Origin: an archaeon
GTDB taxonomy: Archaea > Micrarchaeota > Micrarchaeia > Anstonellales > Bilamarchaeaceae
DNA length: 64,000 nucleotides
Reading direction: 5' to 3'
Assembly: GCA_020053355.1 (NCBI GenBank)
Contig: JAGVNI010000007.1
Coordinates: forward strand, 5,557 to 69,556
Part shown: positions 3,402-63,165 of the stretch, one piece after another
How the letters are laid out: each line of letters opens with the position of its first letter
How positions within the stretch are numbered: position 1 is the stretch's first letter
The notes under the pieces: generated by a model
Seen by the model: only the letters and a program-made list of their open reading frames with translations
Databases searched by the model: none
What the model was told of the DNA's origin: nothing
Position numbers and translations under genes: made by a program

Positions 3402-3873
3402 CCGATATTTCCTCTTGGACGGCCGAGTTTCCGTCCTTGCCTATCGCTTCAAGGACCTTGTCCCTGCAATCCGGCGCTTCATAGGCGCCTCCCACCGCGA
3501 ATTCAAGGTTGGAGTTGAGGAAGACGATTAGCTTCGTACTGGCAAAGTCCGCCTTGGTTTGGTACGCCGGGCGGTAGTCTGACTTGCTGACCCCGTTGAT
3601 GTAGTAGTCCTGATGCATGTCCATGTCCATGGACGTGTGCGCGACGCCTACCTCGATTTCCGGTCCGATATGTTTTCTGCCATTGTTTTTCAGCTCCTCC
3701 AAAACCGTGTACCTGAAGCTGACTTTCCTAAATGGCGGGCAGCCGGACCCAGCCCCCCCTAAGGGCACCATCTCGATTTTTTCAAAAGGCGTTCGCTTCT
3801 CCACGACGAGGATGTAGCACGACTCCTGCACAAGCTCATCCAAACCAATCTCCACCGGGATATCCTGTGACAT
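3394..3873 (-). CDS. hypothetical protein
   Basis: 159-aa ORF co-directional with trpS and overlapping its start by 8 bp; no motif recognised. Confidence 0.35.
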   Translation of the reverse strand: MSQDIPVEIGLDELVQESCYILVVEKRTPFEKIEMVPLGGAGSGCPPFRKVSFRYTVLEELKNNGRKHIGPEIEVGVAHTSMDMDMHQDYYINGVSKSDYRPAYQTKADFASTKLIVFLNSNLEFAVGGAYEAPDCRDKVLEAIGKDGNSAVQEEISDD

Positions 3874-4255: not shown

Positions 4256-4762
4256 CTATCCCCTTTTCCAGAATCCGCAAGCGAGGATTGCAGGCAGCAG
4301 TATCATCGTAAGCGGGCAACTTCCGTCATCCGAAACGCTTCCTGACTTTAACTGCCCGGTCGAGGCCTCGATTTCGACATAATAAGTGTTCTTCCGTTCG
4401 CTGCCGCCAAACAGGGCGCTCAGGTCCTCGGTTCGCACCTCGCTGCCCCCATATTGGTAAGTGAAGTATCCGTCAGGGAAGCCGAAGCAGGGATTGAACT
4501 TGTAGTACCATTGCTGGTCGTTGGTGCAGGTCCCTCCGCTGCAGGAGAAATTGACCGGATATGGCGTTACCGCACCGCTTTCATTCCTCTCATCAGTGCC
4601 AAGGCAGTGGTATGTCAACTGCGTTATTGACGTCGCAAACTGCCCGCCTTCTGTCAGGTGCACAGTTACCTTCGGCGGCGCAGGTGACGGGCCCACATCC
4701 GCATGTGCAAGCGGGAGGACTAGCAAAGCCAGGAGCAGGATTGCGCGCATTATCGATGCCAT
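4256..4762 (-). CDS. secreted Cys-containing protein with C-terminal hydrophobic anchor
   Basis: Signal-peptide-like MASIMRAILLLALLVLPLAHA when started at the internal ATG (4762); several Cys and N-x-S/T sequons; C-terminal hydrophobic stretch followed by WKRG. Confidence 0.4.
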   Translation of the reverse strand: MASIMRAILLLALLVLPLAHADVGPSPAPPKVTVHLTEGGQFATSITQLTYHCLGTDERNESGAVTPYPVNFSCSGGTCTNDQQWYYKFNPCFGFPDGYFTYQYGGSEVRTEDLSALFGGSERKNTYYVEIEASTGQLKSGSVSDDGSCPLTMILLPAILACGFWKRG

Positions 4763-4864
4763 GGAAAATAGCTCGTCGGAACGGTTAATACTGCTTTCGT
4801 TTTGTTGCTGGGAGGCTGCTGCCGCGGCCATTGGCTGCGGCCAAGGATGCGCCGCCGCCTGGCT

Positions 4865-19949: not shown

Positions 19950-20714
19950 ATGGCCAAGTCGCAAAAAAAGCGGGTTAGCCGCCCTGGGAAATTGTCTGCA
20001 AAGAGAAAGCCCAGTTCACGCAGCCCAGTTCCTGATGCAAAACCGCTTCCAAGAAAGGAATTGCCGGTAGTGAGACCGACACCCATCGCCGTTCCCATTC
20101 AAATTCCCGACCCGGCGAAATCCACCTCCCCGCCGCCGGAAGGCCTCAAGATGTGCCAGGGCTGCCAGGCCGCCTGCTGCGACCTGAGGGTAGACCTCAC
20201 GCCCTTCGATATCGCCCGCATCGTCCACCAGGAGAACAGGAATCCCAACGAATTCGTCGAATTATTCCAGGCGCAGAATAACGACTCGTTCGGCTTCCGC
20301 ACCAAGCACGGCCGCGTGAAGATGATACTGAAGCGAGAGGGCGGCACATGCGTTTTCAAAAGCAGCGGCGACCTGAAATGTGTCATAGAGAAATCAAAGC
20401 CGGCCGTATGCCTCGTATACCCGTTCAGCGTGAATTACGGCATCCCGTACATACGGCGCGATGTCATCTGCCCAAAGGAGAACCGGGACCGGGCCGACCG
20501 TTCCAAGATGTCCCGGCAGACGATAAACGACAGCGGCTGGGAAGCCCGCCGCTACGAGGAAACCATATTCCTCTGGAACAAGCATGCCAAAGGCACGGAA
20601 GACCTAAGCCGTTTCCTTGCGTTCGCTGCCACTGAACTTGATGCCGACCGCTCCCCAATTAGCGGCCTGAAAAAGAATCTCGGGCGCTTCATGCTCAGGA
20701 TTGGCCTGCGCTGA
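19950..20714 (+). CDS. YkgJ-family CxxCxxCC putative Zn/Fe-binding protein with basic Pro-rich N-terminal tail
   Basis: CQGCQAACCDL motif (UPF0153/YkgJ family); about 65-aa Lys/Arg/Pro-rich low-complexity N-terminus; paralog at 61322..61879. Confidence 0.55.
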   Translation: MAKSQKKRVSRPGKLSAKRKPSSRSPVPDAKPLPRKELPVVRPTPIAVPIQIPDPAKSTSPPPEGLKMCQGCQAACCDLRVDLTPFDIARIVHQENRNPNEFVELFQAQNNDSFGFRTKHGRVKMILKREGGTCVFKSSGDLKCVIEKSKPAVCLVYPFSVNYGIPYIRRDVICPKENRDRADRSKMSRQTINDSGWEARRYEETIFLWNKHAKGTEDLSRFLAFAATELDADRSPISGLKKNLGRFMLRIGLR

Positions 20715-21252
20715 ATGCGCTGATTATGCCCTCAAGGCTCCCGTTGATGCCGAACCTGTCTGTTATTATCGTGCCGTTAACCAGGACCTGCGGCACAAGC
20801 CTCTGGCTCTGGCTGAGGTTCGATTCGTTCGCGAACTGCTGGTAAGCCCAGGTGCCGTTTTGCGTCGTGATGTCGAATTCCCTCCATTCGACATCCCCGT
20901 ATCTCTCCTCAAGCCGGGTCATGTCCGGCCGGAGCGCCTTGCATGCCGAGCAGTATGTTGAATAGAAGTAATTGACGATGAGCCTGCCATCCGGCGTGGT
21001 GGTGTTGGTGAAGTCGAAGCGGGGCGGCACGAACGGCTTGGTATCGGTGTTCATGACGTCGCTGGCGTTCCGCGAGAACGAGAGGTTCAAGGTGCTAGGT
21101 AATGACGGCGTTTGTTCGGGCTGAACCTGCGGTTCCGATGGCGATGCGTCGGCGGTGGTATTCGCGCCGGTTGCGGGGCTTTTCGCCGCGCATCCGAGAA
21201 GGAGCAGTATTATCGCGGTGAAAGTGACGGTGATTGCGATGGCGCTTCTCAT
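20695..21252 (-). CDS. secreted/membrane-anchored thioredoxin-fold protein
   Basis: Signal/anchor MRSAIAITVTFTAIILLLLGC when started at the internal ATG (21252); thioredoxin-like YFYSTYCSACKAL (CxxC) followed by a ...VPQVLVNG block; 9 N-x-S/T sequons. Confidence 0.55.
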   Translation of the reverse strand: MRSAIAITVTFTAIILLLLGCAAKSPATGANTTADASPSEPQVQPEQTPSLPSTLNLSFSRNASDVMNTDTKPFVPPRFDFTNTTTPDGRLIVNYFYSTYCSACKALRPDMTRLEERYGDVEWREFDITTQNGTWAYQQFANESNLSQSQRLVPQVLVNGTIITDRFGINGSLEGIISAFSAGQS

Positions 21253-21414
21253 AATTCCATATCCGCGTGCAGGATTATAACTGTTATCGCAAGCCGGCGG
21301 GCGTTCGATTCCCATATGGGGCCCCACAAAATCCGGCATGATTTTTGTGGTTTGGAAGCACATTATCGGATTAATCTATTTATTGCCAACACACTCCGGC
21401 TTTTTGGGGATGAT

Positions 21415-24400
21415 ATGCGTTTAACGCTTGTTTTGGCTCTGCTCGCATTGCTTCCAATATCGGCAGCGGAATTTTCGCGCCCGTGGGAAAACGAATCATG
21501 GGTTTCATCGAATCCGAACATCTGGACATTCGGGAAATCGTACTGGTGGAATCTCCCAGAATTCCAAAAAACGCTTGATGGCGCCAGGCTGGTGGAAACG
21601 TCCAGGCTTGAACTCGGGGACACGGCCGCAAGCCATGTCTTTGCGGCGAAAACAAGTTATGAAAAGGCAGAAAAAGACCTGGATATCTGCACCGCGACAA
21701 TCCTGCTTTCCCTGGGGTACTTTCCTATCAACCCTTGCATGGCATTTGTCTCGGTCTTCGCTAATTCATCGGGCTGCTTGTCATACCGTTCGGACTGGAT
21801 ATCCACTGCAGACTCGATGCTGTTAGCCACCGAATATAGCATAGAGTCCGCGGATGAGGAAGTGTCGGTTGCACGGGCGGATTTCGAGCGGATGCGCTTT
21901 GCCGGCCTATGCGATGATAACTACACCGGACCGGGAAGCGGGAGCTGCGCCGAATTGATTGGGGCATTTCGCAGCGTCGACAACAACATCATGGAAGGCG
22001 ACTACGGGAAATACGCGCTGATGACGGACTATTCCCAGGCTCTTGAACAGGGGCTCCAATCCCAAATTCCGGACATCTCGGCTTCCGCATCGATTCTCGG
22101 GCTCGTCTGGGGCGAAGACGGGGTGATGGATTCATTCCGGCATGCCCAGAACCTCACCCGCAAAGCTGTCTCTGAAGCAGAAACCGGATACCTGCAGGGT
22201 TTGGCAAGCGCCCAATCCCGGAAACAGCTTGCCGAGAAAGGCATGGTGAAATTGGAAGATGACGGAGTCGTGGACATAACCCGCGCCTCCTCCGGATTCA
22301 CATCGGGCGGAACGGGGTCGATAACGGACAGGTACGCCTCGTTAAAGGAAGAATCCCGGCGCTTGGACTCATCCCTTGCCGAATCGAAAGTGGCCCATTC
22401 AAGAAGCCTGGACCGCGGGTATCTGGCTGGCGCCATTTCTGGGATTGAAGCGGCAGAAGACGGCTATTCGTCTCTTCTTCAGGGCATCGAAGGCCTGGGG
22501 CAGGATGCCCGGGCTGCCGTGGAAGAGCAGAAGGAAGAAGCGGAAACCGAATTGTCAAGGGCAGAAAAATGCCTTGCCTCGGGCGGGGTAGGCCGGGAGG
22601 GATATGCGCTGTACGATGAAGCGGCCGCTTCATTCGATTCTGCCGGGAGCGCGGGCACCCTCGGCGGCCGTTTCGAGCGGTATTCGAAAGCTGCTGCGCT
22701 TGCCCGCTCAGCCTGCGATGCAAAAAGCTATGATGATGAGTTGGACGACCTCGCATCCCTCGCGTACCTGAAGACTCTCATTGAACTCGCTGAAAAAGAC
22801 CAGATAAACGTGGCAAGCGAGAAAGAAAGCATAAAACTCATCCCCTCACTCCCCCCATCCATGCGTGGCGACGCGGCCCGTGATTCTGTCGACAGCATAA
22901 CCTCCAAAGCGCGTCTTAGGTACGAAGAAGGGCTGCTAAGCAGCCGGAAAAGGATACTCGATAAATTGTCGCTGGCAGGCCCTGGCCCCGCTGACCTTTT
23001 CACCGACCTTGCAGATTGCGAGGCCGGGCTGATTGGCGAAGACGGCCTGGCGCTCCCGGATTCAATCGGACATCTGAAAAAACTGGGCGCGGACTACGCC
23101 CAGCTGGAAGAGACAATCGATGCGTATATGAATGACATCGTAGGCAACGCGATGTCGACCCATGCCGACCCCCTCATAACCTCGGTGCGTCTCGATATGC
23201 CCGCAGAAATAATGCTTGATGCGGTGATGAGCAACCCGCGCCCATACAATGCAACTTCGGTGAACGCATTCATTTCGATGGATTCTCCCGCGCAGTTCGT
23301 CTATAATGACATCTCGGAGGGGAAGGACGGAGTGGAAAGCGTCAGGTCCGCAGACGGGGGGAGGAGCATCGTGCTTGTTCTGGCTTCCGTAGGCCCGTTT
23401 GAAACGAAGCGTGTCGTCTTCCGCAAGGAAAGCGTGCTTGCCCATACGATTTCATCATCATCTAGTGCAGCAGGCCTTGGCGACGGGAAGGCCAGCGTGG
23501 ATGGGCGGATTGATTTCGAACTTGAGATGGACGTCAATTCCCTCGAACTTCCGGAGGATTTTGAAGGAGGCCAAATTGACGGAATGCCTCCCAACCGTCT
23601 TCTATCGGCAGGAAAACATGCGGTGGTTTACGGGAAGGTCGTCTTGGACGCGTACAACGAGACGGTTGAAAACATCAAGGTGAACCGCATCGGAACGAAC
23701 AGCAAAGTCGAATATGACGTCCGCATCGCACCCGCGATGGACCTTGACAGCGTTCCGGTTTTCCTTAGCAGCGTCAATGATTCGCGCATCACGGCATTCA
23801 GCGTCGTTTGCATCAGCGGCGAGCCTGTCCGGGAAAAGGCGCGCATATCCGACACCCAGTACTCGGCCAAGGTCGCCGGGCTGAAACAAGGCAAGGATGC
23901 AGTCCTCAGGGTTAGCTACAGCATAGAAGATACGGAATCCTTCGTAAGGGAGCGGCTAAGCAGTATGGAAGGATTGGACATGGGCCCTTCCGCCAATGAA
24001 CTGCTCGGGCAGGCAAAGCTGCAGGCTGCCGCCGGGAATTTCAGCGAAGCGCTCACATTCATCGAAAAAGCGGTCGCAGCCGCCCAGCAGCAGGAAAAAG
24101 AGGACGCAAAAATGAAGGAACGCAGCGACACGCTCGAAAAGAGCATCCGTGACGAGCTTGGCCTCCTTGACGCCGCGCTTTCATCAACGAATTCCTCATC
24201 CCCCCTTATGCAGAAGCTTTCCACGCGAAGAGCGGAGCTCCAACGCATCCTGGCCGAGGCAGGCGGCCTGAACCAGGGCGAAAAAACCGAAGCGCTTGGG
24301 AAGGCAGACCTGAACTGGCTTGCCAAGGAGCTGACCGCGTTCAAGAAGGAATCGTATACTGCGTATAACGACCTGAAAGAGCGCTTCTATCTGGCAGGCA

Positions 24401-25254
24401 ACACGACAACCCCGGCCGAATTCCTGCTTTTCGAGGACGCGTTCCGGAAGCTGGAGAGCGGCGGCCGGCTGGAATACGCCGTCGGGGTCCTTACCGCGCT
24501 GGATGGTGCGCGAGCGCTCGTGGTCTTGCAGGAATCAGCATCATCAGCGCAGAAAAACGGTTTCAAGTCGCTTCTTGAGAACGTCAAAGCGGATGCGCAG
24601 GATGCCCTTGAAAGATACCTGAAGCAGGCGGCAGCGGCAAAAGGCACGGATTATAGCAGTTTCTTCACCGAGAGCGAGAAAAAGGTGGAAACGCAAATTG
24701 AAGACGCGGAAGATGCCGCCGACGGCGAGCCGCGCGTGTTTCTCCCAAAGCTTGACGCGCTCAATAGGAGCCGCGGAAGGATGGAGATGATTCTGGCTTC
24801 GCTAAAAAACGAGAGCGAAGCGCGGCTTTCCATGCTTGAGTCAATAATCGCCTCGAAAGAAATTCCCGCCGAACGCAGGGCCGCTTTGGAATCCAAGGCA
24901 GACTCCATGCGCGGCATGATTTCCCAAGGCGATTATGTCAATGCCCTGCGCGCAGGAAGCGCGATATCCAAGGAGCTAGATTCGCAGGAGCAGGGCGGAG
25001 GGAACGGGGTGCTTGTGCTGGGCGTGACTGCGATGGCGGTTCTGGCCGCTGTCGGCGTCTATATCTCGAGGCAGCCGAGACAGAAGAAAGAATTGAAGAA
25101 GCTCACTTCTTTTTCTGGGCTGGGGCCGCAGTCGAAGCTGCATCATCAGGCCGCACAAGGACCGCAGGGTCATTCGCCTCGAAGCTCACCCGCGCCCGAC
25201 CGCCATCAGCACTCTCCACGCGGAGATTCCACACCGGAAGCCCCCTCAGCTTGA
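21415..25254 (+). CDS. very large secreted coiled-coil-rich surface protein with C-terminal TM anchor
   Basis: Signal peptide MRLTLVLALLALLPISAAEF; about 1280 aa rich in Ala/Glu/Leu/Ser with many sequons; hydrophobic helix VLVLGVTAMAVLAAVGVYI near the C-terminus followed by a basic tail. The upstream part of ORF 21112..25254 overlaps the divergent Trx-like gene and is rejected. Confidence 0.5.
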   Translation: MRLTLVLALLALLPISAAEFSRPWENESWVSSNPNIWTFGKSYWWNLPEFQKTLDGARLVETSRLELGDTAASHVFAAKTSYEKAEKDLDICTATILLSLGYFPINPCMAFVSVFANSSGCLSYRSDWISTADSMLLATEYSIESADEEVSVARADFERMRFAGLCDDNYTGPGSGSCAELIGAFRSVDNNIMEGDYGKYALMTDYSQALEQGLQSQIPDISASASILGLVWGEDGVMDSFRHAQNLTRKAVSEAETGYLQGLASAQSRKQLAEKGMVKLEDDGVVDITRASSGFTSGGTGSITDRYASLKEESRRLDSSLAESKVAHSRSLDRGYLAGAISGIEAAEDGYSSLLQGIEGLGQDARAAVEEQKEEAETELSRAEKCLASGGVGREGYALYDEAAASFDSAGSAGTLGGRFERYSKAAALARSACDAKSYDDELDDLASLAYLKTLIELAEKDQINVASEKESIKLIPSLPPSMRGDAARDSVDSITSKARLRYEEGLLSSRKRILDKLSLAGPGPADLFTDLADCEAGLIGEDGLALPDSIGHLKKLGADYAQLEETIDAYMNDIVGNAMSTHADPLITSVRLDMPAEIMLDAVMSNPRPYNATSVNAFISMDSPAQFVYNDISEGKDGVESVRSADGGRSIVLVLASVGPFETKRVVFRKESVLAHTISSSSSAAGLGDGKASVDGRIDFELEMDVNSLELPEDFEGGQIDGMPPNRLLSAGKHAVVYGKVVLDAYNETVENIKVNRIGTNSKVEYDVRIAPAMDLDSVPVFLSSVNDSRITAFSVVCISGEPVREKARISDTQYSAKVAGLKQGKDAVLRVSYSIEDTESFVRERLSSMEGLDMGPSANELLGQAKLQAAAGNFSEALTFIEKAVAAAQQQEKEDAKMKERSDTLEKSIRDELGLLDAALSSTNSSSPLMQKLSTRRAELQRILAEAGGLNQGEKTEALGKADLNWLAKELTAFKKESYTAYNDLKERFYLAGNTTTPAEFLLFEDAFRKLESGGRLEYAVGVLTALDGARALVVLQESASSAQKNGFKSLLENVKADAQDALERYLKQAAAAKGTDYSSFFTESEKKVETQIEDAEDAADGEPRVFLPKLDALNRSRGRMEMILASLKNESEARLSMLESIIASKEIPAERRAALESKADSMRGMISQGDYVNALRAGSAISKELDSQEQGGGNGVLVLGVTAMAVLAAVGVYISRQPRQKKELKKLTSFSGLGPQSKLHHQAAQGPQGHSPRSSPAPDRHQHSPRGDSTPEAPSA

Positions 25255-26219: not shown

Positions 26220-26936
26220 TTAACCCTGCCTGTACCGGCCAAGGTGCGTGTAAACGTCAGCTGCGGTCTTGATTCCCACAAAAAGCGCTAGAACGATGAA
26301 CTTCCCCAGCCACTGTGCCGCCGCCAAGCCCGGCCCCTGGAAAAGCGCCTCGGCAATCATCCCGAGGAACTCAAGCGGTATCATCAGGAATCCGGAGATT
26401 ATGATGGTCAGGTGCATCGGTATTATCCGCGAATAAGGGGCGGTCATCACGCGCTTGAGGTTCTCCTCTGTCCGGGCGAGCTCAGATGGTTTTCCGAGCA
26501 CGTTCGTCACGAACGAGTATCCATGGCTAAGGGCCAGGATGAGCGCAGTGACTCCCATCCCCAGCAAATTCGGATTGTCAATCACGAACCAGGGCATCAC
26601 CGAAAGGAAGAGCGCGTACGCCCCGTGGAACATGCCGTAATGGATGCAGAAGAATATCGCATAGCCGTAGGCGCCGGCCGGTGAACCCTCCTTTGGGACC
26701 GAAACCGGGCGGCGCGCCATCACGAAGAAAGCGAGGACGGTATATGCGCCGATGACGATGCTCTCGAGCCAGTATACCCAGATGATTTCCGCCGGGTCCA
26801 GGCCGAATGCCGCCGCTGTAATAAGCGTGAGGGCGTTGCTTGCAAGGAGGACCTGCGCTGAAGGCGGAATCCTGTTCCACCTGAATCCTCTCACATCCTC
26901 AGCTATTGCATCCAAGTTCACGCTTGGGAAATCCAC
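26220..26936 (-). CDS. hypothetical polytopic membrane protein
   Basis: 238 aa, about 7 predicted hydrophobic helices, no motif recognised. Confidence 0.4.
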   Translation of the reverse strand: MDFPSVNLDAIAEDVRGFRWNRIPPSAQVLLASNALTLITAAAFGLDPAEIIWVYWLESIVIGAYTVLAFFVMARRPVSVPKEGSPAGAYGYAIFFCIHYGMFHGAYALFLSVMPWFVIDNPNLLGMGVTALILALSHGYSFVTNVLGKPSELARTEENLKRVMTAPYSRIIPMHLTIIISGFLMIPLEFLGMIAEALFQGPGLAAAQWLGKFIVLALFVGIKTAADVYTHLGRYRQG

Positions 26937-36531: not shown

Positions 36532-36625
36532 GTCATCACAGGAAATAAAATGAGCGGTTGGTTGTTTCCATTTATGATAGGTATCATTTTAAAAATATCG
36601 GTGCGGCGATTTTACCGCTGATGCT

Positions 36626-37783
36626 ATGGAATTCTACCTCAAGGCCATCCTCTGGCTCGTCATGGGCACACTCTTCGGGTTCGCAATCTACTTCGTTTTC
36701 CTGACTCCCGCCCAGCCTTCGCTGCCAATGCCCCCAACCAATGCGCCGCAGCAGAACGACACTATGCCCCAGATTCTCGAAACGGGCGCGGTGAATATCA
36801 CGATGGTGGATGCGCCGGGCTGCGACATTTGCAATGCCGAAGGGCTCATGCTGGAGCAGGTCAAGACGGTATTGCTTAAATCCGAGTTCCTCAGCGTAGG
36901 GACGTCGAAGCGGCTTCCGGGCGCATCAAGCGAGGCGCAGGCGCTGATATCCAGATACAATATCACCACGCTCCCGGCGGTAATCATCGAGGGTGAAGTG
37001 GCGCGCGATTCGGAATTCGTGGCGGCGTGGAAGGAGAGCGTCGGGTCGCTTGAGGGCGGGAAAGCGCTGGTGACACGGTTCGAATACCCGCCATATTATG
37101 ATCTGAAGAACAAGACAGTCGTCGGGCTCACCCAGGCAATCGGCATCAAGGCCTCAGGCTGCCTCGAATGCGGGGACCCGGGCCTTTTCATCTCGTCTTT
37201 GGAAAGCCAGCCCATATCCATGGCATTCACGGATTCGACGGTATACGAGGAGAACGACAGCCGGGCGCAGGCCCTGATAGCGCAATACAACATAACGAAG
37301 CTCCCGGTCCTCTTCCTCAGCGAGGGGGGCGCATCGGCATACCCTGTGTTCGCCCAGATAAAACCCATGGGCACAATCGAGGACGGCTGGTTCATACTGC
37401 GCGACGTCGTCCCGCCCTATGTGGACCTTGCAGACAACCGCTCAATCCGCGGCCTTGTCAAGGCGACGTACCTGGTCAATTCCTCGTGCGCCGACTGCTT
37501 CAACATAAGCTCGCTTTCCACTTACCTCTCGCAGACAAGCGGGGTCGTGATTGTGGACGAGAAGACGTACGAACTGGGTTCTGCCGAGGGCGCTGCACTT
37601 AGGGAGAAATACAACATCACGATGGTTCCCACGCTGATTTTCTCCCCAGATGTCAGGTACTACTACGAATTCGAGGAGGTCTGGAAGAACCAGAGCAACA
37701 CCGTGGAGCCTGACGGCTCGTTCGTTTTCCGCGCGCACGGGCTCCTTGGCAGCGTGGGGTACCAGAACGTCAGCAGCGGCTAG
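36626..37783 (+). CDS. membrane-anchored extracellular protein with three tandem thioredoxin-fold repeats
   Basis: N-terminal TM anchor; three ~110-aa repeats, each with CxxC (GCDIC, GCLEC, SCADC) followed ~37 aa later by a thioredoxin cis-Pro-loop-like block (ALISRYNITTLPAVII / ALIAQYNITKLPVLFL / ALREKYNITMVPTLIF); NIT sequon conserved in every repeat. Confidence 0.6.
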   Translation: MEFYLKAILWLVMGTLFGFAIYFVFLTPAQPSLPMPPTNAPQQNDTMPQILETGAVNITMVDAPGCDICNAEGLMLEQVKTVLLKSEFLSVGTSKRLPGASSEAQALISRYNITTLPAVIIEGEVARDSEFVAAWKESVGSLEGGKALVTRFEYPPYYDLKNKTVVGLTQAIGIKASGCLECGDPGLFISSLESQPISMAFTDSTVYEENDSRAQALIAQYNITKLPVLFLSEGGASAYPVFAQIKPMGTIEDGWFILRDVVPPYVDLADNRSIRGLVKATYLVNSSCADCFNISSLSTYLSQTSGVVIVDEKTYELGSAEGAALREKYNITMVPTLIFSPDVRYYYEFEEVWKNQSNTVEPDGSFVFRAHGLLGSVGYQNVSSG

Positions 37784-38802
37784 GCCACGCCCTGCCTTTC
37801 CCTAACCCGCCCCGCCCTGGGTTGCTGCTGGGTCTCCTGCGGCGGCGGCCCTTGCACGAGAATCGGCCTCCGTGACGGGACCACCGTCGGGGGCCGTGTT
37901 CGATACAGCGTGTCGATGTCCATCCTGGTTCCGCTAAGGACGCGGTAATAGTCGCGGTGGTTCAGCAGGTCCCGCATGGACATGGTCTCGGTATGCCCGC
38001 TGCCGTCGCGCTCTGTGATGACCAGATTCACGTCCCCCAGCACGAATCTGATGCCGTGGCTGTAATCATGGAACGTCTCCTCGTGCGGGATGGCTGCCGG
38101 CTGCGTTCCGGGAAGGTAAATCGCAACCCCCCTGTCCGCGACCTTGCGCCGGACGCCTTCCCGGTCGCTCACATACGCCCCAAGATTCGTCCCCGGGTCG
38201 TATATCACATCCTTCTTGTGCCCCGAGCGGATGATCCTCCTGGGCAGCGCACCGGAGTTCCCTTCTATCATGATGTTCTGCATCTGCGCAAATTCCGGAG
38301 ACCGGGTCAAGAATCCATCGACGTTGTTGACATCCCAGCGTATGCCCATCCTTGAAGCGATTGAAGGCGCGCCGAAGAACGGGACATACCCCCCAAGCCG
38401 TCTCGATTCGTCCCCGATTGTATCCACGAGCTGCATGGTGGGAAGGGCGAATCCGAAATGGTCCGCAATGCGCTGGGCCGTTATCGGGCTCATGGGAATC
38501 CGCGCGAAGTCCCCGTTGCTTCCGATGGCCAAATAATCCGGGCACACCCGCACCGTTGCCCTCACAGTCCGGTCCCCGATGGTCCGTGTTACTGTGATTT
38601 CCCTCCAGTTCTCGGGGCGCATGAAATCCGGGACGTTGCCGGCCATGAACTCGGCCTCTGCCCTCTCTTCGATGTACCTGCAGCGGGCGTCGAGCTCCTG
38701 CACGGACAACCTGTGAGGGTCGCCCATATAAGCCCGGGCGTTCTCCATGAACATGCTTCCTGTCACTGACCCAGGATTCCTTGGCGGTATCGGCGGTGCC
38801 AT
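37780..38802 (-). CDS. hypothetical protein with Pro/Gln-rich C-terminus
   Basis: 340-aa ORF, convergent with a 4-bp overlap to the Trx-repeat gene; no motif recognised. Confidence 0.35.
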   Translation of the reverse strand: MAPPIPPRNPGSVTGSMFMENARAYMGDPHRLSVQELDARCRYIEERAEAEFMAGNVPDFMRPENWREITVTRTIGDRTVRATVRVCPDYLAIGSNGDFARIPMSPITAQRIADHFGFALPTMQLVDTIGDESRRLGGYVPFFGAPSIASRMGIRWDVNNVDGFLTRSPEFAQMQNIMIEGNSGALPRRIIRSGHKKDVIYDPGTNLGAYVSDREGVRRKVADRGVAIYLPGTQPAAIPHEETFHDYSHGIRFVLGDVNLVITERDGSGHTETMSMRDLLNHRDYYRVLSGTRMDIDTLYRTRPPTVVPSRRPILVQGPPPQETQQQPRAGRVRERQGVA

Positions 38803-38847: not shown

Positions 38848-39933
38848 TCATTTTCCGATTTTATACTCGAGAAGCACATCTTTCCCGATTTTCCGGACTC
38901 TCGGTTTCGAAAGTGCCACCGCGTTTTCCATCCTGCCGATGCCGACACCCCCGATTACCGGCTTCGCGTCCCTGCCGCCGATTACTTTCGGCGCGATGAA
39001 AAGATACAGCCGGTCCACGATCCCGGCTTTCATTGCAAGCGCGTTCAATTCGCTTCCGCCTTCGATGAGGATTTTCCGGATTCCCATCGCGCCGAGCGCA
39101 ATCATGAGCTTCTTCAAATCCACCGAATCCCGTCCGCAAACGAGCACGCGCGCGCCTTCCCGTTGGATTGCGAGCGCTTTCGCCCTCTGCGCCTTCTCGC
39201 ATGCGACCACGATGGTCAACCCATCCCCGTTCCGCACGACCCTGCTGTCTATGCCGATATGGAGGCTCCCGTCGATGATTATACGGTGCGGGTTTTGTCC
39301 CAAGCCATGGGTTGTCAGTTCCGGATCGTCTTTTTCGACGGTTCCGGCCCCCACCATCACAGCATCGAAATCCTTGCGCATCCTATGGACGAGCGCTCTG
39401 GACTCCGGCCCGCTTATCCAGCGCGAATCATTTGTTCGCGTCGCGGTCTTCCCGTCCGCGCTCATCGCCATCTTTATCGCGACAAACGGCTTTTTCGAGA
39501 GTAATGCGATGTAGCGGCGGTTGATTGCCGCGGCTTCCTTCTGGTTTGTCGGCCCGGCAACAAGTATCCCGGCCTGCGAAAGCTCCTTCGCCCCAGCCCC
39601 GCCCGCAAGCGGGTTCGGGTCCCTCATCGCATATACGACTTTCGCGATTCCTTCGCGGATAATCGCCTTTGTGCATGGCGGCGTGCGTTTTGCCGTGTGC
39701 GAGCATGGCTCCAGCGTCACATAAAGCGCCGCCCCCCGCGCCGCGTGCGGGTTTCCCATCCTGCGTTTCGCGTCCTCAATAGCTTCAATCTCGGCATGCG
39801 GCTTGCCGGCAGCCTTGTGCCAGCCGGAACCGATGGCAATCCCGCCTTTCACCAGCACCGCCCCGACCCTTGGGTTCGGATGCGGATTCGCCTTCTTTGC
39901 AAGGCGGAAAGCCAGCCTCATATGTTCGTCCAT
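38848..39933 (-). CDS. ribD: bifunctional riboflavin biosynthesis protein RibD (pyrimidine deaminase / reductase), bacterial-type fusion
   Basis: CMP/dCMP-type deaminase zinc motifs HAEIEAI and PCSHTAKRTPPC, followed by a RibD C-terminal reductase domain; started at MDEHMRLAF (39933). Confidence 0.85.
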   Translation of the reverse strand: MDEHMRLAFRLAKKANPHPNPRVGAVLVKGGIAIGSGWHKAAGKPHAEIEAIEDAKRRMGNPHAARGAALYVTLEPCSHTAKRTPPCTKAIIREGIAKVVYAMRDPNPLAGGAGAKELSQAGILVAGPTNQKEAAAINRRYIALLSKKPFVAIKMAMSADGKTATRTNDSRWISGPESRALVHRMRKDFDAVMVGAGTVEKDDPELTTHGLGQNPHRIIIDGSLHIGIDSRVVRNGDGLTIVVACEKAQRAKALAIQREGARVLVCGRDSVDLKKLMIALGAMGIRKILIEGGSELNALAMKAGIVDRLYLFIAPKVIGGRDAKPVIGGVGIGRMENAVALSKPRVRKIGKDVLLEYKIGK

Positions 39934-39986
39934 CGTATCCCTTTCCGAAACCAACCATTCTAAGCTTTCCGCTCGCATTCTCCAAT

Positions 39987-40967
39987 ATGCGCCGCTACAA
40001 ACCCCTCAAAGACGAGCCGAGCGTGTTCGAAGCGCTTCCCATACTCCTGCTTATTATGATTGCGGCGTTCATCCCGGTCATCATCGTCCTCGGCCCCGCG
40101 GCCATCGACTATATCCGCTCCGCGGACTTCCAAATCCCGTCCTGGCTTCCGGAGTTCCCCGTGTTCCCCGTAACGCAAGGCAATGAGAGCCCGCCGCAGG
40201 CGCAACCCCAGACGCTCTCGCAAGATGCACAGCACTATTACTCCCTGAAAAACCTCTCCTGCAAGACCCTCGGCGTCAACTTCATGATTGAGGCGAAGGA
40301 TGTCGCGGCCGGAAGCATGCAGGGGCTTTCCGGGGCTGAAGAAACCCTCGCCGCCTCGATGCTCAAGGAATACGAAATCGACCAGACGACCCGCACCTAC
40401 GTCCGCGGGAGCATGATGAAGAAGGTCCTCATCACCCCCGCCGGAAACCACACGACCATCTGGAAGGACGGCCGCATCTACCAGTGCAACCCGAACTGCA
40501 CGATGAACCTCCTTGGCGATGCGGGCTGGCAGGCGTTCCTTGACAGCCTTGCGGAAATCCGCTCGGGCTGCGCGCATTTCGGGAGGACCGAACTGCCGCT
40601 ATCAATCAACCAATCCCGGCTCCTGACTATCGAAGACGGCGGCAGGACTGAAAAGAACGGCTTCCGCTGCGAGCTATTCCTGATTCGCGGGAACGCTGCA
40701 TATGCAAAATCGCTTATGAATTCCAGCATCCCCATGGATGAGGATGAGCGCGCGCTACTTTGGCTGCTGTCGCACCAGGCCGCGCCAATCCAGGAGTGCC
40801 TTGATGACGGGACGGGCGTCCTGGTTTTCCGGAACGTCACGCTCGACTTGACCCCGTCCTACAATTTCGATTACGCGCCCGGAGGCTACATGCATGTGAG
40901 CCAGCAGACCGACGTCACGTACTACACCGCCTATGTGCCGGAAACGTTCCTGGCGCTGCCGAAATGA
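39987..40967 (+). CDS. hypothetical membrane-anchored extracellular protein
   Basis: Start MRRYKPLKDEPSVFEALPILLLIMIAAFIPVIIVLG (one TM), then a Cys-containing domain with several N-x-S/T sequons; no motif recognised. Confidence 0.4.
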   Translation: MRRYKPLKDEPSVFEALPILLLIMIAAFIPVIIVLGPAAIDYIRSADFQIPSWLPEFPVFPVTQGNESPPQAQPQTLSQDAQHYYSLKNLSCKTLGVNFMIEAKDVAAGSMQGLSGAEETLAASMLKEYEIDQTTRTYVRGSMMKKVLITPAGNHTTIWKDGRIYQCNPNCTMNLLGDAGWQAFLDSLAEIRSGCAHFGRTELPLSINQSRLLTIEDGGRTEKNGFRCELFLIRGNAAYAKSLMNSSIPMDEDERALLWLLSHQAAPIQECLDDGTGVLVFRNVTLDLTPSYNFDYAPGGYMHVSQQTDVTYYTAYVPETFLALPK

Positions 40968-52896: not shown

Positions 52897-55800
52897 GTGT
52901 TTGTATCCTTCGACCCAGTTTTGTTCCTGGCATGGTTATTGTTGTCTAGCCTCATCCCCGGCGCAGCGCTTTCTCTCGCCCTTTTCCGGAAGCATGAGGG
53001 CTTCGGCCTCGTGGAGAAAATATGCATAGGCTTCGCCCTTGGGTTCGTGCTGCTCCCCCTGGTGCCATTCCTGCTTTACTTCCTGGCTGGAGTCAAATTC
53101 ACGCACGATATCGCCATGCTCGCCGTCGGCCTCCTTTACCTTGTTGCCCTCGCGGCGGTGTTCATCACCAAGACATACGAGGACTTCATGCCCAAGGAGA
53201 TGAAGGTCCGGCTTTCGCCTGAACTCCTGATTCCGGCCGCCCTGATAATCCTCCTCATCCTCACCTACCTGGTCCGCATCAGCTCCTACAGCCCGATTTT
53301 CCAGGAGCTCGACCCGTATTACTATACCTACGCCGCCACGCAGCTGCTCAGCTCCGGCGAGAACCCGTTCGGGGACTCGACCGCCTGGTATCCTGACCTT
53401 AACCTCAACCACAGGGCGGTGCCGATGCTCTCCTACCTGGAAGCGGAATGGTACACGCTCTACACGGGCGGCGGGGCATACGACAACATGCTCCTTGCCG
53501 ACATCGCTTCCATGTATCCGCCGGTCGCGGCGGTGCTTTCTGTCTTCTTCATCTACCTCCTCGTGTCCGTCGCGACGAAACGGGAATGGGGCCTCGCAGC
53601 GGCGGGAATCGCATCCTTCGTCCCGGTGTTCGTTTTCAAATTGGCCGCAGGAGAGCAGGAAATCCAGCCATACGCGTTCTTCGCGCTCATGTTCTTCTAC
53701 GCCATGTACCTCCTTTCGGTCAAGCGGAGGGATTTGCGCATGCCGACCGCCAAGGACATGAACATGGGCAAAGACGTCCTTTTCCCCATTCTCGCGGGGT
53801 TCGCGTTTGCCGCGCTTGCCATGGGGAGCGCATCACAGATACTCGCGGTCGTGTCCCTGATACTTTTCATACTCGTCCAGGCAATCCTGGTCTTTTTGCG
53901 CGACAAGGACGAAAGCGAGCTTAAGCACATCCTGCTGTCAAACAGCATCATCTTCATAATCGGCCCCCTGGTTGCAAGCGCGATAATCAAGCCGCTCTAC
54001 GGTGCCGGGGCAATCTCGCCCTCCATCGCGGTCGCATTCGCGATGCCAATCGCATTCGCCGCTGTGCTCTATGGCATCAAGAAGGCCGTGCCTGACCGGA
54101 TGACGGGCGTGGCTATCCTGGCCGCGATGATGATAATCGGGCTCGCCATATTCGTCGCGACCCCGCTCGGCGACTATGTGAAGAACCTGGGGAAGGCCGG
54201 TTTCGAGATAGCCAAGTACAACGCCCCCCTGGACCGGACAATCGCCGAGCAGGGCAATGCGGCGACCACATTCGGGGGCCAGATGGGATTCATCGCATCG
54301 AATTATTTCTTCCCTGCATCCATCGATTCCCCAAGCAATGCGATGAACATCATAATGTACGTATTGCTCCTGCCATTCACGTTCATCGTCAACGTGATAC
54401 TCGCGGCTTTCGTCGCGCTTGCCAACCTTTTCCTTGGAACCGACGTCGCCCTTGGCGAGAAGGACGTCAGCTTCATGCAGTTCTGGGTGTTCCTGTTCTT
54501 CATGGCCTGCGCGTATTCCGCCTTCAGGTTCATGAAGAAGGAGGACGAGGGGCTTTTCATATTTTTCCTGGCAATCGTGCTACCCCCGCTCGTCGTCGGG
54601 CTCATCAAGGCCAAATACACGATATACTCCGGCGTGCTTCTGGCAGTCGCCATCGGGTTCACCCTGGGCATGCTCGGGAGCATCATCGTGTCCATCTCGA
54701 AATTCCTCAAGCAGGAAGCCCTCGGTAAATTCGCATATTCCGTCCCGGTCGTCATCGCCGTGCTTCTGGTCCTGCTGCAGTTCGTGTACCAAGGGTTCGC
54801 CCCGTCTTTGATATGGGGCTCGACCCAGACGCTCTACCAGAACGACCCTGCAGCCCTGGCGCCGAAGTTCTCGCAGTTCTGCAACCAGAGCGGCGACCCT
54901 GAGGTGTGCGCCGCTGCCGCAGACCCGATGGGCTATGCGAACCGGGGCACGAACTACCAGTACAGCTCCAAACTGTGCATGCTCTCGCTTTTCTCGGACT
55001 ATTCCATCCTGACCTACATGTACGACAGCAATTCCTCGAACGACGCGCTCATCCCATCCTATGCGGCGACCTCGGCGTCATTCCGGTGCCAGAGGCTCTC
55101 CGACTACTGGATTGACTCGATGGAGTGGATAAAGAACAACACCGAACCCGGGGCGAGGATTACGTCCTGGTGGGACTACGGCCACTGGATAAACTACTTC
55201 GGGGAACGCAACGCCGTGATACGCAACGAGCACGCATCGCATGAGATGATTGGCGATGTTGCCCACGGATACCTCGACGCCACGCCGGAAGAATTGAAAG
55301 CCTGGATGGTCGCGCACGGAAGCAAATACGCGCTCTTCGACATGGAGCTCGTGTCCGGCGGGGGCTCGCTTGGCGGCAAGTACGGCGCCCTGAACTACCT
55401 CTCCTGCGCGAGGGACAACCTCACATCCGTGGCAAATTCACCCGGCGAATCCTCGTGCGAGGCGGACCACCTCTGGGAGACAGTTCTCGTATCAGGCAAC
55501 CCCTGCACTATATCGTCCCTGACGGGCAAGACCGGCCTGACAGCATACAAGGTTTACGCCGGCCAGACCTACCTGCCGTATTATCCGAACGACTGCATCG
55601 CGCCTACCGACGCCAGGATACTCTCATACTGCCGGGATTACATCCGCGTGGAGCCGGTATACTGCGTCGCCAACACGACCCTCGTCACCGGCGACACGAC
55701 GTTCACGACGTATTACCTGAACGAGACTTACCCGAACGGCGATTTGAAGCTCAATAAGGCCCTGCTCCAGCTTCCATTCCAGCTTCCGACAAGCGTGCAC

Positions 55801-56010
55801 CTGGGGCAGGCGACCGGGGTCACGCTTTTCTATACCGATGACACGGTATGGCTCGAGAACGGCCTTCCCGTTAGCGGCTATTCGGACCGCAAGGGCAAGT
55901 TCTACGACTCGGCCTTATATCGCGCGATTTTCCTGAACAACCTCCCCGGATTCACTGAGGTGTATTCGTCACCCAGCGGGGCGGTGAAGATTTACAAGAT
56001 AGCGGAATGA
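52897..56010 (+). CDS. aglB: archaeal oligosaccharyltransferase AglB (STT3 family)
   Basis: About 13 N-terminal TM helices and a C-terminal domain with the WWDYGHW motif; 1037 aa. Confidence 0.9.
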   Translation: MFVSFDPVLFLAWLLLSSLIPGAALSLALFRKHEGFGLVEKICIGFALGFVLLPLVPFLLYFLAGVKFTHDIAMLAVGLLYLVALAAVFITKTYEDFMPKEMKVRLSPELLIPAALIILLILTYLVRISSYSPIFQELDPYYYTYAATQLLSSGENPFGDSTAWYPDLNLNHRAVPMLSYLEAEWYTLYTGGGAYDNMLLADIASMYPPVAAVLSVFFIYLLVSVATKREWGLAAAGIASFVPVFVFKLAAGEQEIQPYAFFALMFFYAMYLLSVKRRDLRMPTAKDMNMGKDVLFPILAGFAFAALAMGSASQILAVVSLILFILVQAILVFLRDKDESELKHILLSNSIIFIIGPLVASAIIKPLYGAGAISPSIAVAFAMPIAFAAVLYGIKKAVPDRMTGVAILAAMMIIGLAIFVATPLGDYVKNLGKAGFEIAKYNAPLDRTIAEQGNAATTFGGQMGFIASNYFFPASIDSPSNAMNIIMYVLLLPFTFIVNVILAAFVALANLFLGTDVALGEKDVSFMQFWVFLFFMACAYSAFRFMKKEDEGLFIFFLAIVLPPLVVGLIKAKYTIYSGVLLAVAIGFTLGMLGSIIVSISKFLKQEALGKFAYSVPVVIAVLLVLLQFVYQGFAPSLIWGSTQTLYQNDPAALAPKFSQFCNQSGDPEVCAAAADPMGYANRGTNYQYSSKLCMLSLFSDYSILTYMYDSNSSNDALIPSYAATSASFRCQRLSDYWIDSMEWIKNNTEPGARITSWWDYGHWINYFGERNAVIRNEHASHEMIGDVAHGYLDATPEELKAWMVAHGSKYALFDMELVSGGGSLGGKYGALNYLSCARDNLTSVANSPGESSCEADHLWETVLVSGNPCTISSLTGKTGLTAYKVYAGQTYLPYYPNDCIAPTDARILSYCRDYIRVEPVYCVANTTLVTGDTTFTTYYLNETYPNGDLKLNKALLQLPFQLPTSVHLGQATGVTLFYTDDTVWLENGLPVSGYSDRKGKFYDSALYRAIFLNNLPGFTEVYSSPSGAVKIYKIAE

Positions 56011-61912: not shown

Positions 61913-63061
61913 TCAGATGCTGCCTTTCGCCTTTTTGCCACCCTTGCGCCTAAGGAAGTACACCGCCACTCCTGCGAGCAGCAGGATGAGGAGCAGCAAT
62001 CCTGCGATGACGATGGGCGAACTAAACAGCGCAGTGCCCTTGCCTTCCTCACCGCCAGCAGCAGGAAGCGCGGTGATCGCCACGGTCTTTACGACAGTCC
62101 CATTTTTCACCAGCGATACGTTGTAGCTCCCCTTGATTCCCAGGGGCAGCCGGATTCTCCCGTTTTCATCAGTCCTACCGCCCTTGTCCGCTCCTGTCGG
62201 GTCGGTCACCACGTAATCGCATTGCCTGCACGGCCCGCCGCCGGATGTGGCATTGCAGGTTATCTCGATTCCGGCTGTCGCAGAGGGCGGGCAGTCGATA
62301 TCGTCCGGCACGCACTCGTTATTGATGCATGTGAACCCCAGGCTGCAGGACGGGCAGCCGGTCGCATTTCCGCACTGGTATAGTGCCAGAGTATGGTTCG
62401 ATACGCTGCCGCAGCCCTCGACGGGTATGCAGTGGCCTTTTGATGCGCCTACCGCTGCGAAGTAACAGAACTCCAAATCCGGGCAGTCCCCGTCCTTGCT
62501 GCATGAGCCCGTCTCAGGTTCCTGGGGGATGCCGACGCAAGTGTGGTTTTCGCACTGTTGGTTTTCGCCGCAATCGGAATCCGAGCAGCATTCATACGGG
62601 TTGCACTGGTGCGCCGTGACAACGCCGCAGTCGCAGGGCACCGGAAGGCACTCGCCCGCATTGCAGTACTGGTTGTCTGGGCAATCGTCATCTGAGATGC
62701 AGCCGGCGCACTCCTCGCATGCGATTAGCGTCACGACTGTGACATTCATCTCATAATCCGGATTTGTCGCCTTGATATCCACTTTAGCCCCGCATCCTTC
62801 GAAAGTGAACCTTCCCTGGGCATCGGTGTCACCATAAGCCACCGGGGTGGCGTCCGCGGTTTTTTTCACAGACAGGTGGACGTTCGGGATGGGTAAACCG
62901 TCCTTGTCAACCACGCTCACCAGATTGCCATCGCATGTCGAGTTGAGCGTGACAATCATGTGCGCGGTTTCATCATCATCGTCTCCTGGCCCAGACGGAA
63001 GGTACGGAAATGCAATCCCAACCGCCAGGGTCAATGCTATAAGCAGTGCAATCAGTCTCAT
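61913..63061 (-). CDS. Cys-rich secreted surface protein with C-terminal TM anchor
   Basis: Signal peptide MRLIALLIALTLAVGIA; repeated modules of type D-x-D-C-P-D/E-N-Q-Y/Q-C-x-x-G/H-x-C (about 40 Cys); sequons; C-terminal hydrophobic helix plus RRKGGKKAKG tail. Confidence 0.5.
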   Translation of the reverse strand: MRLIALLIALTLAVGIAFPYLPSGPGDDDDETAHMIVTLNSTCDGNLVSVVDKDGLPIPNVHLSVKKTADATPVAYGDTDAQGRFTFEGCGAKVDIKATNPDYEMNVTVVTLIACEECAGCISDDDCPDNQYCNAGECLPVPCDCGVVTAHQCNPYECCSDSDCGENQQCENHTCVGIPQEPETGSCSKDGDCPDLEFCYFAAVGASKGHCIPVEGCGSVSNHTLALYQCGNATGCPSCSLGFTCINNECVPDDIDCPPSATAGIEITCNATSGGGPCRQCDYVVTDPTGADKGGRTDENGRIRLPLGIKGSYNVSLVKNGTVVKTVAITALPAAGGEEGKGTALFSSPIVIAGLLLLILLLAGVAVYFLRRKGGKKAKGSI

Positions 63062-63165
63062 ACCTCCTGATTTACCCGTCAACTCTTATTAACGCATCCG
63101 GAAGGGGCAAGCCGCCGTTACACCGCTATTTAACCTTTCCAAACGCGATTACCCATCCGGTTTCC

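Follow-up and report, generated by a model that had tools for sequence, protein, structure and literature searches.

The open reading frame (ORF) at positions 36626..37783 (+) of a 64,000-nucleotide stretch of contig JAGVNI010000007.1 (Bilamarchaeaceae, Micrarchaeota), referred to at its full length as the window, encodes a protein of 385 amino acids, with the stop codon included in the coordinates. The product would be a surface protein of type II (N-in/C-out), anchored in the membrane and probably N-glycosylated; it would be built of three tandem redox-active thioredoxin-fold units and would perform thiol-disulfide exchange with proteins beyond the membrane. The probability that it is a redox-active ecto-thioredoxin protein is put at about 85%. 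Its most likely mode would be reductive, as a PDI/DsbC-like disulfide reductase or isomerase or as an electron relay for surface proteins, and for this reductive, isomerase direction the odds are taken to be about even. A membrane thiol-electron transporter, CcdA in most lineages carrying the family, would supply the electrons that keep the protein reduced.

The three thioredoxin-like units, all on the (+) strand, comprise residues 52-162 (unit 1, 36779..37111, PPYYD at its end), residues 163-272 (unit 2, 37112..37441, PPYVD at its end) and residues 273-385 (unit 3, 37442..37780). Exactly six cysteines are present, and all of them lie within three CxxC motifs: CDIC of unit 1 (C66 to C69, 36821..36832), CLEC of unit 2 (C179 to C182, 37160..37171) and CADC of unit 3 (C288 to C291, 37487..37498), the last directly preceded by the sequon N285-S-S. 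In each unit, a loop proline follows 47-51 residues past the first cysteine of the motif. The loops read Y-N-I-T-T-L-P117 in unit 1 (residues 111-117, 36956..36976, presumed cis-Pro, sequon at N112), Y-N-I-T-K-L-P227 in unit 2 (residues 221-227, 37286..37306, sequon at N222) and Y-N-I-T-M-V-P335 in unit 3 (residues 329-335, 37610..37630, sequon at N330). Compared with one another by pairwise BLASTP, the repeats share 27-32% identity with E-values of 1e-9 to 1e-11, and a profile made for repeat 2 from 48 homologues covers repeats 1 (E=3e-22) and 3 (E=1e-29) over their full length. Judged by these comparisons, the three segments of about 110 residues are true duplications, and the three CxxC-bearing repeats noticed in a preliminary description of the sequence were thus borne out.

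The fold was predicted with AlphaFold2 (AF2). The full-length model, computed with the alignment of homologues, reached a mean predicted local distance difference test score (pLDDT) of 91.9 and a predicted TM-score (pTM) of 0.78, and the model of unit 2 alone reached 93.1 and 0.86, respectively. All three units were modelled as thioredoxin-like. Unit 1 shows the succession of strand 54-61, helix 67-84, strand 89-97, helix 102-111 and strand 118-123, and in units 2 and 3 the DSSP helix begins three residues past the second cysteine. In a Foldseek search with the single unit, all 50 of the top 50 matches were thioredoxin folds, the best being the Pyrococcus protein disulfide oxidoreductase (PfPDO, 1a8l; probability 1.0 with 71 aligned columns); thioredoxins and DsbD-gamma ranked next. 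The full-length model matched ERdj5, PDI, ERp44, calsequestrin, QSOX and Pyrococcus PDO with E-values of 5e-7 to 1e-4; PDI-family proteins headed this search, but at E=3e-6 the TM-score was only 0.14, such low full-length scores being explained by a domain arrangement that differs from that of the multi-thioredoxin matches. The thioredoxin fold proposed for the repeats thus held in the models of all three units and in every Foldseek match. According to the models, each unit is predicted to keep the thioredoxin fold with the CxxC at the start of helix 1 and with the substrate-groove proline loop.

Sequence searches pointed in the same direction at a greater distance. Profiles of the family matched the PDO sequences 1j08 (E=5e-9) and 1a8l (E=2e-8), and the profile spans residues 17-199 of Aquifex PDO, that is, two consecutive units. 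The window protein itself scored below the Pfam gathering thresholds of thioredoxin-clan models (18.5 vs. 27, 18.0 vs. 24.8 and 15.2 vs. 23.5 bits), and its sub-threshold Thioredoxin matches map to unit 3. Six homologues (P0017, P0020, P0049, P0041, P0013 and P0030) exceeded the thresholds of Thioredoxin, Thioredoxin_2 or Thioredoxin_3. No match to the window protein was obtained by phmmer against PDB sequences, and a search of PHROGs gave none. PF20207 is listed in the precomputed Pfam column for many homologues (P0002, P0004 and others), and hmmscan against Pfam-A did not return it even at E<=10.

Conservation was evaluated in an alignment of 54 homologues with identities down to 26%. All six CxxC cysteines and the loop prolines P117, P227 and P335 are invariant, each of these prolines is preceded by L, I or V, and nearly all homologues contain exactly six cysteines. 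The preliminary description had made its reading dependent on the conservation of the CxxC cysteines in orthologs, and every pair was found to be retained throughout. The tyrosine opening the loop is invariant in unit 3 (Y329) and conserved in at least 90% of sequences in unit 1 (Y111). Within the Micrarchaeota clade, S287 is invariant as well, while N285 and the residues N222, I223 and T224 are conserved in at least 90% of members. The invariance of the CxxC and the proline loop in three units and across two domains of life argues for catalysis rather than structure, and from this pattern we infer a catalytic role. In a set of 5.8 billion proteins, 63 homologues were found, the best non-identical one at 93% identity, and all those carrying a name are entered as "hypothetical protein" of Candidatus Micrarchaeota.

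The topology of the protein was assessed from several signals. The only hydrophobic helix by hydropathy is formed by residues ~3-29, a signal-anchor or transmembrane helix (36632..36712; hydropathy peak 2.3; AF2 helix 2-25). It is followed by a disordered stalk rich in Pro, Gln and Asn (residues 30-51, 36713..36778), with pLDDT below 55 for residues ~30-50 and a sequon at N44. In 40 of the 54 homologues, the 15 residues before the transmembrane segment contain more lysine and arginine than the 15 residues after it, and the reverse was seen in only four; this bias indicates an N-in/C-out orientation of the family. The protein contains 12 N-x-S/T sequons, which use 12 of its 15 asparagines; its composition would lead to 2.1 +/- 1.3, and none of 20,000 shuffled sequences reached 12. 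This is the most extreme sequon excess in the window, where such an excess is confined to helix-bearing or exported proteins: 73 of their 209 asparagines lie in sequons (29.5 expected), compared with 32 of 386 (37 expected) in proteins without a hydrophobic helix. The window-wide pattern is the clear mark that AglB-dependent glycosylation would leave on the exported proteins of this organism.

AglB was indeed found in the window, as had been claimed. The AglB/STT3 oligosaccharyltransferase is encoded at 52897..56010 (+), matches Pfam STT3 with 36 bits (cut-off 24.5) and the AglB core with 26.8 bits, and carries the catalytic WWDYG motif at residues 758-762. Its gene is not operon-linked to the triple-thioredoxin gene, and it would be the enzyme that glycosylates the sequons of the triple-thioredoxin protein. 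With AglB encoded in the window and a sequon excess seen in its exported proteins alone, the triple-thioredoxin protein is read as outward-facing and probably glycosylated. Together with the operons that homologues share with exported redox proteins, these signals make the outward location and N-glycosylation well supported, with glycans probably attached. The single N-terminal transmembrane segment with repeats outside, as proposed in the preliminary description, is therefore upheld by the positive-inside bias, the sequon excess and the exported operon partners. A cytoplasmic PDO paralogue was considered and rejected on the same topology and sequon evidence.

The role ascribed to the NIT sequon in each repeat stood only in part. 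The use of 12 of 15 asparagines in sequons favours glycosylation, but the loop sequon is kept in only 20, 39 and 37 of the 54 homologues for units 1, 2 and 3, respectively. Members from bacteria of the Candidate Phyla Radiation (CPR) have YKITK[VIL]P without a loop sequon and only 1-5 sequons overall, whereas Micrarchaeota members have YNIT and 5-22 sequons. Because the CPR sequences keep the loop without the sequon, the I-T-x-[LIV]-P part is considered structural; the alignment presents Y-x-I-T-x-[LIV]-P as a structural motif of the family, and NIT does not appear to be a conserved glycosylation signal as such. The overall sequon content is therefore better evidence of glycosylation than the NIT motif.

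Among 1.84 billion cluster representatives (50% identity), the family profile matched 779 clusters at E<=1e-30 and only 1608 at E<=1e-3, a distribution from which a discrete family rather than a generic thioredoxin follows. Two-unit and four-unit variants occur within it. Species-representative genomes were scanned with the alignment of the Micrarchaeota clade, and the family was found in the archaeal groups Micrarchaeota, Woesearchaeota, Nanoarchaeota and Aenigmatarchaeota, and among CPR bacteria in Levy-, Davies- and Roizmanbacteria, Peribacteria and WWE3, including the complete genome CP006914.1 (WWE3 RAAC2). In a rough midpoint-rooted neighbour-joining tree, Micrarchaeota formed one clade, and a tight CPR clade (mean identity 63%) was nested among sequences of Woese-, Nano- and Aenigmatarchaeota. 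This nesting suggests one inter-domain transfer.

Outside Micrarchaeota, the gene was analyzed in 59 loci, on which all following neighbour counts are based, and there it is part of a conserved same-strand cluster (L027-L087; for example L077, which is CP006914.1 of WWE3 RAAC2, L044 at 2140-2922 and L027 at 3483-3746). Of these loci, 28 have the membrane thiol-electron transporter CcdA/DsbD_TM no more than 7 kb away, and among the 23 loci with full flanks, i.e., at least 5 kb on both sides, 15 have it; it usually lies on the same strand and is often directly adjacent. An exported protein of ~260 amino acids with C-x2-CCGG...CGCxH and a VGGC end (c1) occurred in 43 loci, and a protein of ~87 amino acids with an MVGGC end (c2) in 30. 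A BlaI-type repressor (21 loci) is paired with a BlaR1/M56 protease (20 loci). A His-rich protein of ~199 amino acids (c5) was counted in 21 loci, a membrane protein with CHxxC (c24) in 13, and a DsbA-like protein, a candidate oxidase, also in 13. Further neighbours were exported AhpC/TSA-Redoxin proteins (12 loci), an HMA P-type ATPase (10), another thioredoxin (9) and cupredoxins (5), and no Msr gene was seen in the neighbourhoods of the homologues. For the cluster proteins of unassigned type (VGGC-tailed c1 and c2, the His-rich 199-residue protein and the CHxxC membrane protein), no Pfam family was found.

In 14 loci (L032, L045, L055, L059, L062, L064-L070, L076 and L080; e.g., 2098-2565 of L065), an anchored thioredoxin-like protein of ~155 amino acids (c20) is encoded directly upstream of the triple-thioredoxin gene. 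It carries CxxT in place of CxxC and the motif YGA..WC...Q.K..FG....TPTW.ING, which appears to resemble the thioredoxin-like domain fused to bacterial VKOR. As a separate observation, several metagenome-assembled genomes among these loci bear labels at odds with their gene order: L039, L046, L048 and L057 are labelled "uncultured Gammaproteobacteria" and show the CPR-type order, and L041, L053, L060, L065-L068, L070 and L074 are labelled "Methanosarcinales" and show the DPANN-type order. These taxonomic labels look unreliable.

Tethered thioredoxins supplied by CcdA are known from cells with a single membrane. Bacillus ResA and StoA are CcdA-dependent surface thioredoxins. A working combination of CcdA and a surface-anchored thioredoxin is represented by the CcdA-Etrx-MsrAB2 system of S. 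pneumoniae (PMC3914529). Like Etrx1/Etrx2 and ResA/StoA, the protein described here has the thioredoxin fold and is anchored on the outside of a sole membrane, and its relatives adjoin CcdA in organisms that require reducing power beyond the cytoplasm. In contrast to these single-domain lipoproteins or anchored proteins of the TlpA/ResA type, it has three PDO-like units on one chain, and while their partner is CcdA, the gene in this window has no CcdA nearby.

With regard to the chemistry of the active sites, 57% of the 371 CxxC motifs of the family have D or E directly before the second cysteine, and none is of the CPHC/CGHC type. By the established chemistry of thioredoxin folds, such acidic dipeptides would disfavour a strongly oxidising site. 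Moreover, with DsbA-like oxidase genes in the same clusters (13 loci), the role of oxidase would already be filled there. The exported AhpC/TSA-Redoxin genes of these neighbourhoods also speak for the reductive direction. On account of the CcdA linkage, the separate DsbA-like genes, the acidic CxxC motifs and the precedent of CcdA-Etrx-MsrAB2, a reductive role is favoured, and the direction of electron flow we infer from these features. Three active sites on one tethered chain also recall PDI and DsbC, where multivalency serves isomerisation. The earlier suggestion of an oxidoreductase or isomerase is consequently retained as regards redox-active thioredoxin units and narrowed, by the gene context of relatives and the acidic motifs, to a reductase or isomerase rather than a DsbA-type oxidase.

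Several observations weigh against this reading. Profiles of CcdA, c1, c2, c5, c20, c24, the DsbA-like protein, BlaI and BlaR found no member in the 64-kb window, nor in 20 loci of the Micrarchaeota clade (L001 and L008-L026; ~324 kb), where the triple-thioredoxin gene is effectively monocistronic. In the clusters that do contain CcdA, its direct partner could be another thioredoxin-like gene (c20 or cluster 38) instead of the triple-thioredoxin protein. Only about 70 of the 110 residues of each unit superpose on known thioredoxin folds, the C-terminal part with its helix, hairpin and PPY being family-specific. Finally, the exported Cys-rich proteins of the window require some oxidase, for which no candidate was seen besides the triple-unit protein and a single thioredoxin at 20695-21363 (-). 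In this second exported thioredoxin-fold protein (222 amino acids), LLLLGC resembles a lipobox, the active site reads CSAC and 9 of the 13 asparagines fall in sequons. The protein exceeds the Pfam Thioredoxin cut-off (24.4 vs. 23.5 bits); it could be a redox partner of, or an alternative to, the triple-unit protein.

Putative substrates of extracellular disulfide chemistry in the window are four exported cysteine proteins, all with excess sequons. They are encoded at 61913-63082 (-), with 30 cysteines and a CarboxypepD_reg domain; at 21112-25254 (+), with 14 cysteines; at 4256-4831 (-), with 6 cysteines, a signal peptide and a C-terminal anchor; and at 39870-40967 (+), with 6 cysteines. Their numerous, mostly even cysteine counts would suit a net disulfide oxidase, whose units would put disulfides into newly exported surface proteins in the manner of DsbA, MdbA and ERp46 and would be re-oxidised by a quinone- or flavin-linked partner, by oxygen or by small-molecule disulfides. 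PDO and PDI relatives can oxidise in vitro, PDI, ERp44 and QSOX are among the Foldseek matches, and CcdA was not found near the gene in any Micrarchaeota locus searched. Such an oxidase is nevertheless considered unlikely: neither VKOR, DsbB nor Erv-like genes were seen among the window membrane proteins scanned, the acidic CDIC, CLEC and CADC sites are unlike CPHC or CGHC, and in other lineages the family is linked to CcdA and accompanied by separate DsbA-like genes.

The HMA-domain P-type ATPase, the cupredoxins, the BlaI/CopY-family repressor with its BlaR-like protease and the His-rich and Cys-rich proteins in the non-Micrarchaeota neighbourhoods would also be compatible with the handling of thiophilic metals, in which case the gene would belong to an envelope metal-stress island and the CxxC motifs would serve to bind copper, or a different soft metal, at the cell surface or to buffer it. 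This is judged very unlikely, as an invariant proline loop typifies redox-active thioredoxin folds and disfavours metal binding, the alignment shows no conserved His or Met ligands beside the CxxC, and metal genes do not flank the Micrarchaeota gene in the window or the 20 loci. Copper stress, furthermore, creates a need for disulfide isomerase (Scs-type systems), so that the context fits the reductive reading equally well. Highly improbable is a non-catalytic scaffold or chaperone, in which the units would be structural and the CxxC motifs permanent stabilising disulfides under a glycan coat. Sequons do lie near the active sites (N285-S-S before C288; N112, N222 and N330 before the proline loops), where glycans could block substrates, and calsequestrin, a non-catalytic triple-thioredoxin protein, is among the structural matches; however, lineages that share no more than 26-30% identity, nearly sequon-free ones included, retain all six cysteines and all three loop prolines without exception, and non-catalytic thioredoxin domains (PDI b/b', calsequestrin) have lost these residues.

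Among characterized proteins, PDO of archaea and Aquifex (PDB 1a8l, 1j08, 2ayt/2ywm; TIGR02187) was the closest solved relative by both profile and single-unit fold search, and it shares the tandem units of ~110 amino acids with a CxxC each. Whereas PDO is cytoplasmic and soluble and has two units with CQYC/CPYC-type sites, the triple-thioredoxin protein has three units, an anchor, an outward location, dense sequons, acidic CxxC motifs and a different C-terminal third of each unit. It scores 20.1 bits against TIGR02187 (PDO_seleno_TRX), far below the cut-off of 185, and is a remote PDO homologue outside the PDO family proper. DsbA is distinguished by a helical insertion and a CPHC-type site; the dipeptides here are DI, LE and AD, the CxxC-to-proline spacing leaves no room for the insertion, and no DSBA or Thioredoxin_4 match was found in the window protein by Pfam even at E<=10.

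In DsbC/DsbG-DsbD systems and in multi-site PDIs (PDI, ERp72, ERp46), several redox thioredoxin modules act jointly on one substrate, and the loci of the relatives likewise encode a separate DsbA-like oxidase and a DsbD-type electron importer. Eukaryotic PDI is arranged as a-b-b'-a'; its active sites read CGHC, and its substrate-binding domains are inactive. The triple-thioredoxin protein lacks the dimerisation domain of DsbC, the inactive b/b' domains of PDI and any CGHC site, and has no detectable sequence homology to either beyond the thioredoxin core.

Enrichment in CPR bacteria has been described for an MdbA-like thiol-disulfide oxidoreductase with VKOR (Meheust et al. 2019, PMC6744442), in a report which does not mention the triple-unit family. 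Both are exported CxxC oxidoreductases of CPR genomes, of which the MdbA-like protein is typical, but the MdbA-like protein has a single DsbA/Thioredoxin_4 domain accompanied by VKOR and is a different family; the DsbA-like genes beside the relatives of the triple-thioredoxin gene probably belong to it. Literature searches yielded no description of the triple-unit family, the MdbA-like/VKOR report being the only CPR-related one. On this comparison, the protein would best be classed as a member of an unannotated, DPANN/CPR-wide family of extracytoplasmic three-unit PDO-like oxidoreductases.

The formation, checking and repair of disulfides outside the cytoplasm are largely uncharted in archaea. 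DPANN archaea attach to hosts via surface proteins, and the literature searches returned nothing on this family in that connection. The family provides a concrete, highly conserved candidate enzyme, which is also common to CPR bacteria, where it lies inside a CcdA-containing cluster, and the protein offers a setting in which archaeal N-glycosylation may be studied beside a catalytic site. The ectodomain is small, soluble and confidently predicted, which makes it amenable to direct study of its structure, redox potential and activity as an isomerase. A broader proposal is made tentatively and is itself rather doubtful: that of an undescribed extracytoplasmic thiol-redox module specific to ultra-small symbiotic prokaryotes (DPANN archaea and CPR bacteria), consisting of a three-site PDO-like ectoenzyme, CcdA and two exported VGGC-tailed proteins, and exchanged between domains, with a stand-alone, heavily N-glycosylated PDI counterpart in Micrarchaeota. 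If true, the latter would be the first candidate catalyst of disulfide isomerisation on the archaeal cell surface.

The start codon of the triple-thioredoxin ORF is the first ATG past the preceding stop. A TATA-like AT-rich element, TTTTAAAAATATCG, was read directly from the sequence at 36587..36600 (+), 26-39 nucleotides 5' of the ATG within the 94-nucleotide divergent intergenic region, and it is a putative promoter of the gene. In Micrarchaeota, synteny around the gene is retained down to ~40% identity: upstream lies an oppositely oriented DUF7121 coiled-coil gene with NUDIX beyond it, and downstream a convergent RibD followed by other riboflavin genes. This neighbourhood (38848-39978 (-) in the window; 11148-17868 in L001) comprises RibD, CTP-dependent riboflavin kinase, GTP cyclohydrolase II, DMRL synthase and DHBP synthase. 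A tie to flavin-dependent sulfhydryl oxidases was set aside because these neighbours are convergent or divergent and not co-oriented with the thioredoxin gene, an arrangement that also speaks against co-transcription.

No VKOR, DsbB or CcdA gene was found in the window. Three ORFs considered as VKOR/DsbB-like partners were rejected, namely 1688-2209, which has no cysteine, 26220-26936, which has a DUF6498 domain, and 4256-4831, the secreted cysteine protein with the C-terminal anchor listed above. A search of the 5.8-billion-protein set with the CcdA profile was uninformative on Micrarchaeota, its best 120 matches belonging to Woesearchaeota, Nanoarchaeota and Aenigmatarchaeota. An ORF of 340 amino acids at 37780-38802 (-), without a Pfam or PHROG match, is situated between the thioredoxin gene and RibD, and its stop overlaps the stop of the thioredoxin gene. 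The syntenic genome L001 (54% identity) has no gene at this position, and the ORF may be a lineage-specific insertion.

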